Notes under the pieces: model-generated
What the model saw: only the letters and a program-made list of their open reading frames with translations
Databases searched by the model: none
Told to the model about the DNA's origin: nothing
Origin: an uncultured Clostridia bacterium
GTDB lineage: Bacteria > Bacillota > Clostridia > TANB77 > CAG-508
Length of the DNA stretch: 64,000 bases
Reading direction: 5' to 3'
Assembly: GCA_947631785.1 (NCBI GenBank)
Contig: CANRMR010000003.1
Coordinates: 4,346-68,345 of the forward strand
Shown: one piece after another, positions 4,372 to 64,000 of the stretch
Position numbering within the stretch: the first letter of the stretch is position 1
Layout of the letters: each line of letters opens with the position of its first letter
Program-made: the position numbers and the translations under genes

Positions 4372-5622
4372 TTATTCTTTCTCCGTATTTAAAATTTTTT
4401 CTCTATATTTTAATGTTTGGTCATAATTTTGTTTTACTTGTTCATTTGTTAGTGATTTTGTGTATAGTCTTGTTGTGTATACTAGACCTTTTAAATAGTA
4501 TAAATTACCTGCATAACTAAGAGGGCATGTTCCTATAAAAAATGGGGCATCAGAATTATTCCATTTTTCACATGATAATTGATAACTATCACTTCCATAA
4601 TATGTGTATCCATATTCTGTTCCATTTATATATAATGTCAATTTATCTACTTTTTTATTATCTATTGTTTCAGCTTCAACCTCATATACTATTGTTAGAT
4701 ATACATCTGTATTTAACTGTATTATATCTTCTATTACTTCATCTGCTATTACACCTCCATAACTTATTGTTGATAATTTTTTTCCTGTTCCTACATATGA
4801 ACTGCTTGAATATAATTTTGCTATTGCTTTATCAATACCAAAATAAAATCTCATACTGTCCGTCATATTATTTTGTTTCAAATCATGCATTTTACAAAAT
4901 AATCCTGTGGACATATCATTATTTCCATTATTGTTATCATATCTTAATCTGTCTAAATTCATATATATTTCAAATGTAAATCCTTTACTAAAATCTGCAT
5001 CTTCTTTTTTTAGTTCTAAATAGTCTCCATCTCCATCAAATTTTAATGCCATTTTTTCTTCATTATATGTAACATCACCTCGTTTTGTTATCCCATCCCA
5101 ATTTCCATTTTTTAGGTTCGATGCATCTATGTTTAATGGTAAATTATCTGTTACTGCTACACTATCTTTATAATCTAATTTGTCATATTTTCCTTCTTCT
5201 AATTGTACTATTTCCTTTGTTTTATAATTTACTACCCAATTGTATTTTATTTCTCCATAATCTTCTGTTTTAGTTCCTTTTGCTATATAATTCCAGTTTG
5301 TTCCATATTCCTTTTTATCTGTAAATACCATATTCCAATTTTCACCATTGTATAAATTTTGAGTTGTTAGTTCTTCTCCTAATTTTTTAATACTATTATC
5401 ATTTGTTGTTTCATGCATTTGGTATAATAAAATATTTTGTTCTAGGTATTCTCTTTCACTTGCAATGGTATATTTATCTACTGCTTCTTTGCTTTTTTGA
5501 AATATTCCATTTTGTCCTAGTGCTAGGTTTAAGGATACGCCTGCTAGGATGATTAAGATTATTACGGTGATTATTAATGCAACTAATGTTATTGCTGCTG
5601 GTTCTTGGGCACGGTACCCCAT
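4372..5622 (-). CDS. Pilin/pseudopilin-like N-terminal helix + LamG (concanavalin-A-like lectin) domain protein
   Basis: The N-terminal AITLVALIITVIILIILAGVSL resembles a prepilin-type hydrophobic segment. The C-terminal half (LKFDGDGDYLEL, LTLYINGTEYGYT, RLYTKSLTNEQVKQNY) looks like a LamG fold. The only available ATG lies inside a REP hairpin and has no good SD. Confidence 0.55.
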   Translation of the reverse strand: MGYRAQEPAAITLVALIITVIILIILAGVSLNLALGQNGIFQKSKEAVDKYTIASEREYLEQNILLYQMHETTNDNSIKKLGEELTTQNLYNGENWNMVFTDKKEYGTNWNYIAKGTKTEDYGEIKYNWVVNYKTKEIVQLEEGKYDKLDYKDSVAVTDNLPLNIDASNLKNGNWDGITKRGDVTYNEEKMALKFDGDGDYLELKKEDADFSKGFTFEIYMNLDRLRYDNNNGNNDMSTGLFCKMHDLKQNNMTDSMRFYFGIDKAIAKLYSSSSYVGTGKKLSTISYGGVIADEVIEDIIQLNTDVYLTIVYEVEAETIDNKKVDKLTLYINGTEYGYTYYGSDSYQLSCEKWNNSDAPFFIGTCPLSYAGNLYYLKGLVYTTRLYTKSLTNEQVKQNYDQTLKYREKILNTEKE

Positions 5623-5630
5623 GCCCCTAC
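5607..5630 (-). repeat. REP-like GC-rich hairpin (stem class CACGG/CCGTG, one mismatch)
   Basis: Plus strand GGGCACGG-TACC-CCATGCCC-CTAC. Minus strand GTAGGGGCATGGGGTACCGTGCCC. It contains the LamG-gene ATG. Confidence 0.75.
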
Positions 5631-5659
5631 GATTATTTGGGTTTGTCTTTGTAGCATTT

Positions 5660-5686
5660 GGGCAGACAGGGGCGTCTGCCCCTACA
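5660..5686 (-). repeat. REP-like hairpin (stem CAGAC/GTCTG)
   Basis: GGGCAGAC-AGGGGC-GTCTGCCC-CTACA on the plus strand, which is TGTAGGGGCAGAC...GTCTGCCC on the minus strand. Confidence 0.8.
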
Positions 5687-5713
5687 CCTATATTGTATTC
5701 CGTTGTAGAATTT

Positions 5714-5740
5714 GGGCGGACAGAGGCGTCCGCCCCTACG
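5714..5740 (-). repeat. REP-like hairpin (stem CGGAC/GTCCG)
   Basis: GGGCGGAC-AGAGGC-GTCCGCCC-CTACG. It is the second member of a doublet with 5660..5686. Confidence 0.8.
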
Positions 5741-5762
5741 GTTTTATTTTCTTTTAAAAGAT

Positions 5763-5793
<31 letters not shown>

Positions 5794-5959
5794 AGAGCGG
5801 CAAGGTTTTCATGTTTCATTTGTTTTCCTTCTTTCTTTTCTTATTTTTTATTTATTTTATATCATAACAAATTTTATTTTGCAATATTGGGAGAGAAATT
5901 TTATTTTGAATTTTCTATCAGTTTTATTTTGATATTTATTAGGATATGTCTCTGTAGAT

Positions 5960-5986
5960 GGGCAGACAGGGGCGTCTGCCCCTACA
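5960..5986 (-). repeat. REP-like hairpin (stem CAGAC/GTCTG)
   Basis: The core is identical to 5660..5686 (GGGCAGACAGGGGCGTCTGCCCCTACA). Confidence 0.8.
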
Positions 5987-6011
5987 ATTATTGTATTCCT
6001 TTATGGTTTTT

Positions 6012-6036
6012 GGGCAGGTCAAGACCTGCCCCTACA
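6012..6036 (-). repeat. REP-like hairpin (stem CAGGTC/GACCTG)
   Basis: GGGCAGGTC-AA-GACCTGCCC-CTACA. It is the second member of the doublet with 5960..5986. Confidence 0.8.
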
Positions 6037-6062: not shown

Positions 6063-8724
6063 TTAATAATTATTTTGAAATTTTCTTGTTTTGTATATTG
6101 TTTTTCCAAATTTTATTTCGTTTAGTTTCTTTTGCACTTCTATTATAAATATTGGTGATATTGATATTAGTATTGTGTATATCCATGCTTTTGCATTTAA
6201 TGTACTTAGCATAAATATTTTTGCAATTTGTGGAATTAGTACTACTCCTATTTGCAAAATTGTACCTAATATAAATGCTCCTATTAGGTATTTGTTATTT
6301 TTTATTCCTACTTTAAATATTGATTCTTCACTTTTAATATTAAAGCTGTGTACAAGTTCTAACATTCCAAGTGTTACAAATGCCATTGTTCTTCCTACTT
6401 CTAATGAATATAAATTATTTCCTATGCTAAATGCAAGAAGTGTAAGCATTCCTATCATTGTTCCTTCTATTATTATTTTTCCCCATAGTCCATCTGCAAA
6501 TATTCCTTTGTTTGCTTTTCTAGGTTTTTTATGCATAATGTCTTTTTCTGGTGGTTCTAGTCCTAATGCTATTGCTGGAATTGAGTCTGTAACTAAATTA
6601 ATCCAAAGTAGTTGTATTGCAAGAAGTGGAGTTTCTAAACCTAAAAGTAAGCCTATAAAAATTGTTACTATTTCTCCTACATTTGTTGCAATTAAAAAAT
6701 GTATTGCTTTTTTTATATTATCAAAAATATTTCTTCCTTGTTTTACCGCTTCTACAATTGTTACAAAATTATCATCTGTAAGTATCATATCTGCAGCGTT
6801 TTTTGCTACGTCTGTTCCTTTTTTACCCATAGCAATTCCAATATCTGCATTTTTTAGTGCTGGTGCATCATTTACTCCATCTCCTGTCATTGATGTAATA
6901 GCACCTGTGCTTCTAAATGCTTTTACAATTCTTACTTTATGATTTGGAGAAACTCTTGCAAATACACTGTATTTCATTATATTTTTTTCTAAATCACTTT
7001 GTGATATTTTATCTAATTCTGCTCCAGTAATACATAAATCGTTTTTTTGTAAAATTCCTAAATTACTTGCTATTGCTCTTGCTGTAACTATATTATCACC
7101 AGTTATCATAACTGTTTTTATTCCTGCTTGCTTGCAAACTGATATTGCCTCTTTTACACCTTCTTTTGGTGGATCCATCATTCCAATTAAACCTACAAAA
7201 ATTAAGTTTTGTTCTACTGTTTCAGATTTTATGTTTGTAGGTAAATCTTTTACATCTAAATATGCAACACCAATTATTCTTAATGCTTTTTGTGCCATAC
7301 CATCATTTTTATTTACGATTCTTTCTTTATCATCTTTGTTGCATAAATAAATATCTCCATTTTCAAGATATTTACTACATCTTTTTATTAGCTCATCTGG
7401 TGCACCTTTTGTAATTATTCTGTATCCCCCTTCTATTTTGTGTATTGTCGTCATTAATTTTCTATTAGAATCAAATGGAATTTCATCTATTCTTTCTTCT
7501 TTTTCATAAATTTCATCTTTATTTATATTTTTGTTTAATGCTTCTTGAACAATTGCAATTTCTGTTGGGTCTCCTGTAATTTTTAGCTTTCCTTTTTCCT
7601 TTTCTATGTAACAATTTGTACACATACTACCTAATTTTAAAATAAAATCAAAGTCTGCAGTTCCAAATGGAGTTGTAATTTGCATTACTTGCATTTCATT
7701 TTTAGTTAGTGTTCCAGTTTTGTCTGAACAAATTACGCTACTACTTCCAAGTGTTTCTACAGCTGGCAATTTTCTAATTATAGCATTTTTCTTTGCCATT
7801 TTTGTAACCCCAATAGATAACATTATTGTAACAATTGCTGGTAAACCCTCTGGTATTGCTGCAACAGCTAATCCAATTGATGTCATAAACATTTCTACTA
7901 TTGGTATTTTTTTGAAAATTCCAATTAAAAAAATAGCAATACATATAATTAAACATACAACACCTAATGTTTTTCCTACTTGCTCTAGTTTCTTTTGAAT
8001 AGGAGTTTGTGGTGATTCTTCTTCTATTATTAATTTTGCAATATTACCTACTTTTGTATTCATCCCAGTTTCTGTTACAATACCTGTTGCATGTCCGATT
8101 TGTTACTATTGTTGTCGCAAATGCCATATTTGTCATATCTGCAATTTGAGCATCTTCTTTTAAAATGCTGTCTGCATCTTTATTTACTGGAAGTGTTTCA
8201 CCAGTTAATGTAGATTCTTCTATTTGTAAATGATTCATTTCAATTAATCTACAATCTGCTGGTACAAAACATCCTGCTTCTAAAATTACAATATCTCCTG
8301 GCACTACATCTTCTGATTTTATACTTATAATTTTTCCATTTCTTTTTACTGTTGCTCTTGGTGCTGACATATTTTTTAGGGCTTCTAACGATTTTTCTGC
8401 TTTGTTTTCTTGAATAAGTCCCATTATTGCATTTAAAACAACAATTGCAATTATTATAATGGAATCTAAATAATCCCCTGTTCCTTCTATTTTTGCAACT
8501 ACTGCAGATATAATAGATGCTATCATTAAAATGATAATCATAAAATCATTAAATTGTTTAAAAAATTTAATTAAAATACTATCTTTTTTCTTTTCTTCTA
8601 GTTTGTTTTTACCATATTTTTCTTTTCTTTTTTTTACCTCATTTTCATTTAAACCTATTTGTATATTGGTTCCCATTTTTTTGCACACTTGCATCTTGTC
8701 CATTGTATGCCACATAAATATCAC
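6063..8724 (-). pseudogene. P-type cation-transporting ATPase (Ca2+/P2-like), split by one frameshift
   Basis: ORF 8044..8724 carries the TGE motif (TLTGETLPV). ORF 6063..8063 carries CSDKTGTLT and TGDGVNDAPALK. Removing one A from the AAA at 8099..8101 joins the frames to give ...TTIVT-IGHATGIVTETGMNTKVG... Confidence 0.8.
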
Positions 8725-17409: not shown

Positions 17410-17431
17410 GTAGAGGCGATTTTAATCGCCC
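17410..17431 (+). repeat. REP-like hairpin (stem CGATT/AATCG)
   Basis: GTAGAGGCGATT-TT-AATCGCCC on the plus strand. Confidence 0.8.
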
Positions 17432-17543
17432 GTCACTTTAAAGAACTTGCTTAATAAATATTATGTATAAAAATGTATATAAACTTTTTATAAAATTGTT
17501 TTATATCAAAAAATTATATAGGTTATGCCTAACGTTGGTCTTC

Positions 17544-17566
17544 GGGCGATTAAAATCGCCCCTACA
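17544..17566 (-). repeat. REP-like hairpin (stem CGATT/AATCG)
   Basis: GGGCGATT-AA-AATCGCCC-CTACA on the plus strand, inverted relative to 17410..17431. Confidence 0.8.
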
Positions 17567-17619: not shown

Positions 17620-17653
17620 CAAAAAAAGCACGATTTTTTTTCGTGCTTTTTTT
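17620..17653 (-). terminator. Rho-independent terminator of the str operon (after tuf)
   Basis: Stem AGCACGA/TCGTGCT with an A/T loop, followed on the minus strand by a T-run. Confidence 0.75.
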
Positions 17654-51025: not shown

Positions 51026-51055
51026 GTAGAGGGCACGGTGCACCGTGCCCCTACA
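51026..51055 (-). repeat. REP-like hairpin (stem CACGG/CCGTG)
   Basis: GTAGA-GGGCACGG-TG-CACCGTGCCC-CTACA, with GTAG-like ends on both strands. Confidence 0.8.
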
Positions 51056-51081
51056 TTTTTTTGTATTTCTTTGTGGTTTGC

Positions 51082-51104
51082 GGGCGATTAAAATCGCCCC
51101 TACA
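51082..51104 (-). repeat. REP-like hairpin (stem CGATT/AATCG)
   Basis: GGGCGATT-AA-AATCGCCC-CTACA, ending 2 nt before the adk stop. It forms a doublet with 51026..51055. Confidence 0.8.
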
Positions 51105-63151: not shown

Positions 63152-63392
63152 AGTAATTTCCCTCCTTTTTTTAAAATTTACCTAGGCAAGTTTAAACGCA
63201 TCCTGGTGTTTCTTTATTCACCGTTTAAAATTCCCAAGTTATTAACGGATACTTCATTTTTACAGCTTGGGATAAGTGATGGTTTTTTCTCTTACCGCCT
63301 GGTCTTAGCCAAGACATACTCTGCGAAAGTTCCCTCCATCCTTCATATCCGTAAGGATGTAGCCACATTTCGCTTCATCGCAAATCTAAACA
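63152..63392 (-). promoter_or_regulatory. ~240-nt structured 5' leader of the S10 operon (candidate r-protein autoregulatory RNA)
   Basis: Locally GC-richer than its surroundings. Stems read directly: 63191..63198/63222..63229 (TTTAAACG/CGTTTAAA), 63232..63238/63266..63272 (TCCCAAG/CTTGGGA), 63302..63306/63311..63315, 63323..63328/63368..63373 (GCGAAA/TTTCGC), the last enclosing 63337..63343/63353..63359 (CATCCTT/AAGGATG). Confidence 0.55.
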
Positions 63393-63399
63393 CCTAATT

Positions 63400-63428
63400 A
63401 TTATACAACGCTTTGTTCCGTATGTCAA
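63400..63428 (-). promoter_or_regulatory. Consensus sigma-A promoter of the S10 operon
   Basis: Minus strand TTGACA (63428..63423), exactly 17 nt, TATAAT (63405..63400). Confidence 0.75.
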
Positions 63429-63469
63429 CAGCTTTTTTAATTTTTTGTAATAATTTTGCTATATAATGT

Positions 63470-63496
63470 GTAGGGGCGATTTTAATCGCCCGCTAC
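63470..63496 (+). repeat. REP-like hairpin (stem CGATT/AATCG) adjacent to the RAYT gene
   Basis: GTAGGGGCGATT-TT-AATCGCCC-GCTAC, 14 nt from the RAYT stop codon. Confidence 0.85.
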
Positions 63497-63509
63497 TTCG
63501 AAGTATTTC

Positions 63510-63963
63510 CTAACAATATTTATCTTTTTTCCAATTAATTATATTATTTTTTATATATTCTTTTATCTTTAAATATTCTTTTTCATTTCTTATTATGTGT
63601 TCATAAAATGACTTTTGCCAGATTGAATATGTTAGTTTTCTACTTACATTTGTTTTATAATGTTTTATTATCGTTGAAAGTGTTACATCCTTTTTGTATA
63701 ATACTAAAACTAAAATATGTATATGGTTAGGCATTATTATATATTCATCTATTATAATATTATCATATATTTCTGTTATTTTATCTATATATTGTTTTGA
63801 TATTTCTCCTTCCTTTGTTAATTCTATTTTATTATCTTTTGTTATTTTTCCTAATATCTCTACTCTATTTTTTATACATAATGTAATAAAATACATGTTT
63901 TCTTTTGAATAGTCATAATTTTCTAGTCTTATTTTTTTTTCGTTGTGGTAATTTTTCTTTCAT
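63510..63963 (-). CDS. REP-associated tyrosine transposase (RAYT; IS200-like Y1/HUH), N-terminus displaced by +1 in an A9 run
   Basis: HUH motif in IIMPNHIHILV. IWQKSFYEHIIRNEKEYLKIKEYIKNNIINW resembles the RayT C-terminal Tyr region. ATG 63963 (MKEKLPQRKK) joins RLENYDYSKENMYFITLC only if the A9 run at 63932..63940 is read as A8. ORF-track core is 63510..63896. Confidence 0.75.
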
Positions 63964-64000
63964 ATTCTTCCTTTCTGGTTTTTTATTTACTATACAATTT

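Follow-up and report, generated by a model that had tools for sequence, protein, structure and literature searches.

Does an uncultured, low-GC Clostridia bacterium of the gut carry a mobile system of the kind formed by a REP-associated tyrosine transposase (RAYT) and its repetitive extragenic palindromes (REPs)? The question is raised by a 64,000-nucleotide stretch of contig CANRMR010000003.1 (hereafter the window), in which a small transposase-like open reading frame (ORF) close to the right-hand end lies next to a GC-rich hairpin, and related hairpins recur at distant positions. To our knowledge, nearly all work on REP/RAYT systems has been done in Proteobacteria, and biochemistry is available only for Groups 2 and 3. 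A first interpretation made from the letters alone, here called the sequence-only reading, took the gene for a RAYT and the hairpins for a REP family. Profile searches, the predicted protein fold, the other flank of the gene and a terminator scan all spoke in favor of it. With a probability that we put at about 85%, the locus is a REPtron, in which the gene of a single-tyrosine (Y1) transposase with a histidine-hydrophobic-histidine (HUH) motif, a RAYT or tnpA_REP, lies between inverted cognate REPs, while further REPs occupy intergenic spacers.

The ORF encodes 128 amino acids (aa) and contains the motifs PNHIHIL and WQKSFYEHIIRNEKEY...YIKNN..NW. The HUH motif PNHIHIL was found exactly as described before and corresponds to H80 and H82 in the numbering of the 150-aa family protein, which is used throughout. 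The C-terminal region was present as well, but the predicted catalytic tyrosine, Y136, is the Y of EYIKNN and not that of SFYEH. N140 and the putative GTAG-contacting residues W115, Q116, E121, H122 and R125 complete the set. The protein passed the Pfam profile PF01797 with 29 bits (cutoff 23). The best-scoring model by far was REP_Tyr_transpos of NCBIfam (NF047646) with 54.8 bits for the 128-aa form and 57.7 bits for a repaired 150-aa form, whereas the IS200 model NF033573 gave only 17 bits and remained below its cutoff of 55. The PF01797 match ends at profile position 121 of 121, equivalent to residue 140 of 150, so that no conserved extension follows the core.

Structural comparison led to the same family. 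The sole sequence match among the PDB structures was E. coli TnpA_REP (4ER8), and a Foldseek search with an AlphaFold (AF2) model, built with 17 homologues as input and with a mean confidence (pLDDT) of 75, returned 4er8_A as best hit with a template modeling (TM) score of 0.64 and a root mean square deviation (rmsd) of 2.3 Å. TnpA proteins of IS608, ISDra2 and IS200 reached TM scores of about 0.48 and rmsd values of 5-10 Å in the same search. Alignment with 4ER8 paired the catalytic Y115 of E. coli with Y136 and N119 with N140, and placed W94, Q95, E100, H101 and R104 opposite the identical residues W115, Q116, E121, H122 and R125. These five E. coli residues read the GTAG foot of the REP (PMC6006769; residue roles also PMC8266576). 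Among the 17 homologues, W115, Q116, R125, Y136 and N140 are invariant, E121 and H122 are present in at least 90%, and the HUH histidines are kept. The window contains this one RAYT locus and no second RAYT. A survey of 72,556 plasmids yielded one weak match to the family and 50,697 phages yielded one match, which indicates a chromosomal family with practically no members on plasmids or in phages.

The surroundings of the gene correspond to those of a RAYT. A hairpin, GTAGGGGCGATTTTAATCGCCC, is located at 63470-63491 at a distance of 18 nt from the stop codon, or 13 nt if the foot of the double-foot form is counted. The sequence-only reading had described the hairpin correctly and had given the distance as 14 nt. 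In contig L002, which reaches 2 kb beyond the window end, GTAGGGGCGATTTTAATCGCCCGTTAC precedes the ATG by 57 nt and is inverted with respect to the downstream hairpin. The suspected inverted REP beyond position 64000 is therefore present and is the same REP; this upstream copy outside the window was seen in L001-L004. The two copies are embedded in a longer inverted repeat of 62 nt, composed of 8 nt outside the GTAG, the REP and a 32-nt inner tail, with 54 of 62 positions identical between the flanks. Its left partner lies at L002:1873-1934, about 20-80 nt beyond the window end. The unit is bordered by a NUDIX gene and by a perfect TTGACA-17-TATAAT promoter (63428-63400, minus strand) before rpsJ; no tnpB adjoins it. 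A REP-containing inverted repeat that encloses the gene is the defining arrangement of a RAYT.

Contigs of rabbit-gut metagenomes in Logan (X1-X4) were inspected for word depth at this REP. It amounted to 73-115 in the REP, 36-54 in the next 24 nt and 4-5 in the unique flanks; the REP depth is that of the whole metagenome and hence an upper bound for this organism. When 63467-63515 was examined, several distinct contigs matched 63467-63508 with 2-4 mismatches. Depth profile and variant contigs together suggest that the dispersed unit of this subfamily is about 42 nt long (REP plus tail) and is not only the 22-nt hairpin.

The dispersed hairpins form a genuine family. Scanning both strands of the window (28% GC) with the pattern GTAGRGGC-N6-30-GCCC gave 10 matches, at 5607, 5660, 5714, 5960, 6012, 17410, 17544, 51031, 51082 and 63470, as compared to 0.00 in 100 dinucleotide-preserving shuffles. 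Two further REPs have a degenerate foot (ATAA and GTAA; Table 1), raising the total to 12. The earlier count of at least 12 related REPs with a common clamp was thus reproduced, with the qualification that 51026 and 51031 denote a single element by its two feet. Three checks made independently of the GTAG word and of any palindrome filter agreed. The pattern GGGC-N8-22-GCCC occurs 11 times in the window, in each case in a REP, and 10 of these REPs show complementarity at four or more additional inner positions; REPs contain 22 of the 29 GGGC/GCCC tetramers, and account for 10 of the 14 perfect GC-rich hairpins of the window. Folded as single-stranded DNA, five of six REPs gave -9.3 to -10.6 kcal/mol and the copy at 17410, which has a mutated clamp, gave -5.8 kcal/mol (z-scores -3.3 to -5.8).

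Each REP consists of a 5' GTAG foot and a hairpin of 8-10 bp with the base GGG(C)...(G)CCC and an inner stem that differs by class. The GGG...CCC base is present in 11 of the 12 copies, the one at 17410 having GAG. Three copies possess both feet, which are paired in the predicted fold (Table 1). All five stem words of the sequence-only reading were correct, but CAGAC and CGGAC differ by one compensated pair and the classes could equally be counted as four families. Besides the copy flanking the RAYT gene, the CGATT class has three further members (17410, 17544, 51082).

Table 1. Elements of the RAYT unit and REPs of the window, with positions counted from the first nucleotide of the window.
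Feature	Position	Strand	Remarks
REP, CACGG-class variant, one stem mismatch	5607..5630	-	loop contains ATG of ORF 4372..5622
REP, CAGAC class, 8-bp stem, 6-nt loop	5660..5685	-	
REP, CGGAC class	5714..5739	-	exact 26-mer also in over 100 metagenome contigs, most of them above 50% GC
REP, CAGAC class, double foot	5954..5985	-	
REP, CAGGTC class	6012..6035	-	24 nt after stop of P-type ATPase gene
REP, CGATT class, mutated clamp GTAGAGGC	17410..17431	+	left member of outward-facing inverted pair
REP, CGATT class	17544..17565	-	right member of pair; beyond true tuf terminator (17621-17653)
Degenerate REP, CACGG class, foot ATAA	44333..44356	-	20 nt downstream of VWA-domain gene
REP, CACGG class, double foot	51026..51054	-	unit 2 of adk/map array; orthologous in L205 (degenerate) and L211
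REP, CGATT class	51082..51103	-	2 nt past adk stop codon; unit 1 of two-unit direct array
REP, CAGAC class, foot GTAA, 8-nt loop	51922..51949	-	secY/adk spacer
Right-hand 62-nt inverted repeat of RAYT unit	63463..63524		overlaps last 15 nt of ORF
Putative cognate REP, CGATT class, double foot GTAG-GGGCGATT-TT-AATCGCCC-G-CTAC	63470..63496	+	flanks RAYT 3' end; -9.9 kcal/mol, z -4.7
RAYT (tnpA_REP) gene body	63510..63896	-	residues 23-150 of 150-aa family protein
RAYT 5' segment	63897..63963	-	family start codon 63963-63961; reading frame out of frame with body
A9 homopolymer (T9 on plus strand)	63932..63940	-	junction of the two frames; apparent cause of +1 frameshift
Shine-Dalgarno-like word AAAGGAAG	63967-63974	-	AAAGGAAG-N3-ATG, just upstream of family start

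Stem and enzyme vary together in related loci. The nearest genomes are metagenome-assembled genomes (MAGs) of uncultured Clostridia with a protein identity of at most 76%. Seven loci with 63-76% identity (L005-L011) have a REP upstream (plus strand) and a REP downstream (minus strand) of the RAYT gene, an arrangement also found in L014. The 22-mer of the window is conserved without change in both flanks of six of these seven loci, and the upstream copy of L008 is a near-identical variant. The more distant loci L012-L015 (55-63% identity) retain the clamp around the compensated inner stems CGAAC/GTTCG, CGGCC/GGCCG and CGACT/AGTCG. One MAG harbors two RAYT paralogues, one with CGATT (L005) and one with TCGACG (L027). 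The genomic position of the RAYT locus is not conserved between species; L008 alone shares one upstream gene. A conserved RAYT site upstream of the S10 operon was considered and dropped, as rpsJ adjoins the RAYT gene in none of 15 related loci. On a broader scale, loci surrounding homologues of many phyla (1.25 Mb in total) contained 194 clamp-only matches, of which 116 are perfect hairpins with 36 different inner stem words.

The repeats also come and go between close relatives. We compared the orthologous adk/map and secY/adk spacers of genomes whose Adk proteins are 84-88% identical, the surrounding genes being collinear throughout. The adk/map spacer carries a CGATT and a CACGG REP in the window, one degenerate CACGG copy in L205, no GTAG-type REP in L207, and a CACGG REP together with imperfect CGGGT- and CAGGT-type copies in L211. 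The secY/adk spacer is free of REPs in L207 (107 nt) and contains a CGATT REP plus relics in L211 (521 nt). At the sequence level, such gain and loss is the expected look of a mobile, decaying repeat family.

All REPs of the window are extragenic and at most touch a predicted start. Five of them (5607-6035) occupy the interval that separates a P-type ATPase gene from a Laminin_G_3 gene. The GC skew of the plus strand is -0.19, which makes the minus strand the leading-strand sequence and thereby the lagging-strand template, and the GTAG strand of 10 of the 12 REPs coincides with this G-rich minus strand. Fork-associated single-strand transposition is established for IS608. The strand bias of the REPs would fit single-strand transposases acting at the replication fork.

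Neighboring REPs (5607-6035 and 51026-51103) form head-to-tail direct arrays with a period of 51-54 nt. Their stems differ (CAGGTC, CAGAC, CGGAC, CACGG, CGATT) and are separated by a moderately conserved linker of 26-29 nt (approximately AAAnnCYAYAAAGRAATACAAnAAT). A CRISPR-like array at 5607-6035 was ruled out, because its repeats would not be alike in sequence and the conserved parts would be the 'spacers'. Tandem Repeats Finder missed the arrays of 51-54-nt period in the window, whose units are too divergent, and reported only (CT)14. This perfect microsatellite (5766-5793) is situated in the 430-nt spacer between the REP arrays 5607-5739 and 5954-6035. The only inverted pair among the dispersed copies is 17410/17544, with an AT-rich spacer of 112 nt; the other ten are singlets or members of direct arrays. 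The pair (17410-17565) displays GTAG at both outer ends and the same relative orientation as the pair flanking the RAYT gene. It may represent either a doublet of the REPIN kind or what is left of a RAYT unit after deletion. REPINs, inverted REP doublets that form one long hairpin (Bertels & Rainey 2011), are regarded as the unit that moves in Pseudomonas.

Two explanations that dispense with a REPtron have to be weighed. The gene might belong to an ordinary autonomous insertion sequence (IS) of the IS200/IS605 type, the flanking hairpins being its ends and the other hairpins being unrelated. PF01797 is indeed the IS200-like Pfam family, and both the 62-nt inverted ends and the occurrence of the unit at different loci in different species would suit an IS. 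TnpA of IS608 and ISDra2 resembles the RAYT in its Y1 HUH fold, single-strand hairpin recognition, 5' tetranucleotide guide and preference for the lagging-strand template. IS200/IS605 TnpA, however, is dimeric and belongs to multi-copy elements with asymmetric left and right ends, not inverted repeats, and often with tnpB, whereas the unit described here is present once in the window, is bordered by the NUDIX gene and rpsJ in place of tnpB, and ends in a hairpin identical to dispersed intergenic copies. Taken together with the 17 bits on the IS200 model (cutoff 55), the proximity to TnpA_REP in fold and sequence and the near absence of the family from plasmids and phages, this largely refutes an ordinary IS200/IS605 element, which we regard as highly improbable. 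Scarcely more probable is the second explanation, in which the hairpins serve the host in regulation, as intrinsic terminators, attenuators or stabilizers of mRNA 3' ends, and have a GC clamp in common and no link to the transposase. Several REPs lie within operons or close behind the stop codon of a gene (adk, ATPase, VWA gene), mRNA stabilization and transcription termination have been reported for REPs elsewhere (reviewed in PMC6006769), and two REPs of the window are terminator-like, though on the antisense strand only. In contrast, a terminator scan of four REP regions (the 44333 region lay outside the scan) revealed no terminator-like site on the transcribed minus strand, where no REP was followed by a T-run, and the true tuf terminator is a separate hairpin (Table 1). 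In the regions scanned, this speaks against the concern that the hairpins are ordinary terminators lacking a shared clamp. Rfam searches of the whole window at gathering thresholds, including the rpsJ leader, found no family, so that known RNA families do not explain the hairpins either. Regulatory structures would also leave unexplained the GTAG foot, the identity with the RAYT flanks, and the fact that close relatives differ in how many REPs, and of which class, an orthologous spacer holds. A host role as secondary function of the REPs is possible.

Within the REPtron interpretation, it has to be asked which REPs the enzyme would serve. The CGATT class is the presumed cognate of this RAYT, and for the remaining stem classes the most likely partners are RAYT paralogues encoded outside the window. 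Alternatively, one RAYT might serve all five classes by way of the GTAG and the GGGC...GCCC clamp, which would make further paralogues unnecessary. The clamp is invariant across the classes, members of the mixed-class arrays have a common linker, and in S. maltophilia mutation of the three bottom stem pairs left cleavage unimpaired while mutations higher in the stem had a moderate effect (PMC8266576). The CGATT stem, on the other hand, flanks the RAYT clade in seven species, stems co-vary with RAYT divergence in L012-L015, the second RAYT of the related MAG has a REP class of its own, and the rule in the literature is one tnpA_REP per REP family (PMC6006769); we therefore consider a single enzyme for all classes unlikely. 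Whether more than one RAYT exists had been asked before: the related MAG does contain two paralogues with different REP classes (L005, L027), but the window contains one.

The assignment to a REPtron is not free of difficulties, and the following observations count against it. The protein stays at 58 bits below the equivalog cutoff of NF047646 (80 bits) and is not filed under this specific model. Most REPs of the window are singlets or parts of direct arrays and not inverted doublets (REPINs). None of 120 metagenome loci with a CGGAC/CAGAC REP, among the matches listed (L085-L204), had a RAYT nearby. The RAYT gene itself is frameshifted, as described below. Class copy numbers and the number of RAYT genes refer to the 64 kb of genome covered by the window. 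Furthermore, we know of no RAYT of subclass 2.4 or Group 4 for which cleavage or transposition has been shown.

Which known system does the locus resemble? The RAYT is probably closest to subclass 2.4 (Quentin et al. 2018, PMC6006769), which equals RAYT Group 4 (Bertels et al. 2017, PMC5581495), an assignment based on described features. Like the window, this subclass has stems that begin with three G-C pairs, double-foot REPs of the form GT[AG]G...C[TC]AC, no C-terminal extension after the core, a conserved set of W, Q, E, H and R in the GTAG-reading region, and a chromosomal location with near absence from plasmids. A published hallmark of the subclass, predominant though not universal, is a REP inside the gene (PMC6006769). 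We detected such an in-frame GTAGGGGC...GCCC REP in the RAYT gene of 13 distant loci with 33-44% identity (L021, L027, L033, L050, L051, L060, L063, L068, L069, L072, L077, L078, L079), whose hosts include Patescibacteria, Chloroflexota, Spirochaetes, Oscillospiraceae and others. The internal REP follows just after the HUH strand, about 250-300 nt from the start of the match, and encodes for instance VGARHASPLP (L077) or GRTQGSAPT (L063). It is absent from the RAYT gene of the window and from its close clade, which with 150 aa is a minimal version. The host is also unlike the typical ones: subclass 2.4 is plentiful among Cyanobacteria and Bacteroidetes (PMC6006769) and Group 4 in Cyanobacteria, Chlorobia and Caldilineae (PMC5581495), with scattered occurrence elsewhere, whereas the window derives from an uncultured Clostridia bacterium with 28% GC.

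The best sequence and fold match is the E. coli REPtron (TnpA_REP YafM, 4ER8; REPs in bacterial interspersed mosaic elements (BIMEs); Group 2 or subclass 2.2). Both systems agree in the HUH motif, the catalytic tyrosine, the asparagine and the five identical GTAG-contact residues, in a gene placed between inverted REPs and in REPs with a 5' GTAG foot. Sequence identity is only 24%, however, and the REPs of E. coli, whose longer stem requires a bulge, alternate in orientation within BIMEs, whereas the REPs of the window are short, perfect, GC-clamped stems, many of them singlets or in direct arrays. The S. maltophilia REPtrons (Group 3 or subclass 2.5; Nunvar 2010, Corneloup 2021) share short perfect palindromes (8-bp stem, loop of about 3 nt), the GTAG foot, and several REP classes per genome with several RAYT paralogues, each having its own class. 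They differ by an aspartate in place of E100, which is a glutamate in the RAYT of the window, by a high-GC proteobacterial host and by hundreds of copies. The main GTAG-REP survey, by Di Nocera et al. (PMC3733652), lists Proteobacteria, Cyanobacteria, Chloroflexi and the Planctomycetes-Verrucomicrobia-Chlamydiae group and no Firmicutes; the accessible part of the supplement text of PMC6006769 does not mention Firmicutes, and a literature search on RAYT in Clostridi- returned unrelated papers only.

The novelty of the locus is taxonomic and not mechanistic, since a subclass with GGG stems and double feet has already been described (Quentin 2018). What is added is a compact REPtron resembling those of Group 4, from uncultured gut Clostridia of low GC content, in which the putative cognate hairpin is invariant across species although the enzymes have diverged to 63% identity. 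New to the record are the frameshift in a run of nine A residues, the direct mixed-class REP arrays, and REP cores common to hosts of very unlike GC content. The compensated stems of distant relatives and the gain and loss in close ones make the clade useful. As conspicuous GC islands in a genome with 28% GC, the REPs allow an easy census and hence offer a convenient natural system for studying how a RAYT chooses its hairpin. For annotation, GC-rich palindromes in a ribosomal-protein gene cluster are explained as REPs, and a frameshifted transposase is recognized that gene callers otherwise report as a 128-aa protein.

By analogy with TnpA_REP of E. coli, S. maltophilia and Marinomonas (PMC8266576), on which our model is built, the RAYT protein would bind a REP hairpin folded in single-stranded DNA of the lagging-strand template. 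The GTAG foot would be read by W115, Q116, E121, H122 and R125, and the strand would be cut at a nearby CT, either 5' or 3' of the hairpin. As a candidate cut site we propose CTAC, the 'second foot', which in many copies follows 1-5 nt on the 3' side. Together with the HUH-bound metal, Y136 would make the cut and leave a 5'-phosphotyrosine link, and rejoining of the strands by strand transfer would result in REPs being copied or moved.

The gene as it stands is probably not able to produce this protein. The best 120 homologues are nearly all 144-161 aa in length, mostly 149-150 aa, and align to the repaired RAYT over 99-100% of the length. Above the called ATG, the frame reads ...KKIRLENYDYSKEN-M, which is the conserved N-terminus of the family, and contains no start codon. 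The family start codon lies further upstream behind a Shine-Dalgarno-like word, and the frame opened there ends after 16 codons (MKEKLPQRKKNKTRKL, followed by a stop codon). Both frames meet at a run of nine A residues (A9; Table 1). Deletion of one A gives MKEKLPQRKKIRLENYDYS..., a protein of 150 aa with 85% full-length identity to the 150-aa protein P0001. The transposase ORF of the sequence-only reading is of the RAYT type, but the gene carries a +1 frameshift and the 128-aa call is incomplete in comparison to the 149-150 aa of the family. Four independent ENA contigs, as well as Logan contigs from four rabbit-gut runs, show the same A9 run, which five assemblies contain and which is therefore not an assembly slip of the window. 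Homologues L008-L010 have A6-A7, i.e. shorter or interrupted runs. The frame can be restored only by a +1 event or by a transcript that lacks one A; a -1 shift leads to TAA.

The simplest reading is that the A9 frameshift represents a recent inactivating mutation. Since a full-length protein requires slippage to restore the frame, the RAYT/REP system is at present probably inactive or strongly down-regulated. A living RAYT, in which A9 permits a full-length form by transcriptional slippage, +1 ribosomal frameshifting or a phase-variable switch, would account for the fact that the remaining ORF has stayed open over 128 codons in a 28%-GC genome, that a good Shine-Dalgarno-like word precedes the upstream ATG and none the internal ATG, and that loss of exactly one A regains the family N-terminus. 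A runs of at least nine are reportedly slippage sites in bacterial IS genes. No variant in A-run length, however, was present in any assembly or in the Logan contigs, in which minor variants are invisible; homologues with A6-A7 or interrupted runs need no slippage, and the P-type ATPase gene of the window is frameshifted as well. We thus favor an inactivated gene and hold continued activity to be rather doubtful.

The frameshifted P-type cation ATPase gene is split into two overlapping ORFs on the minus strand, 8044-8724 and 6063-8063, with the junction near 8085. The N-terminal ORF matches Cation_ATPase_N and positions 2-81 of the E1-E2 profile, and the C-terminal ORF continues from E1-E2 position 90. 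Apparently, the split in this second frameshifted gene of the window results from a 1-nt insertion in ...ACAAATCGGACATGCA..., outside any homopolymer.

REP cores of the CGGAC/CAGAC class extend far beyond the immediate relatives. The 26-mer pattern of this class was found in at least 120 metagenome contigs, many labelled human gut, with a median GC content of 59%. The exact 26-mer GTAGGGGCGGACGCCTCTGTCCGCCC (window 5714-5739) occurred, among the matches listed, in 94 contigs above 50% GC and in 6 contigs below 35% GC; carriers at the low end have 28-31% GC, and the contigs have the core in common and not the flanks. An identical REP core in hosts of such unlike base composition is unexpected for elements that are usually termed species-specific. 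A joint reading, that clamp-family REP cores are exchanged between gut Firmicutes of differing GC or held identical across them, that the A run is a slippage switch setting REP mobilization, and that the mixed-class arrays record repeated targeted insertion beside REPs, is speculative and in our estimate improbable.

Two further observations concern the neighbors of REPs. About 250 nt of leader separate rpsJ from the sigma-70 consensus promoter directly downstream of the REP of the RAYT gene (63152-63428, minus strand). At the other end of the window, the Laminin_G_3 protein (ORF 4372..5622, minus strand) starts with a hydrophobic, pilin-like N-terminus, MGYRAQEPAAITLVALIITVIILIILAGV..., and the sole in-frame start upstream of it is located in the loop of the REP variant GTAGGGGCATGGGGTACCGTGCCC (5607-5630). 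The Laminin_G_3 ORF may owe its start codon and its six initial codons to this REP.

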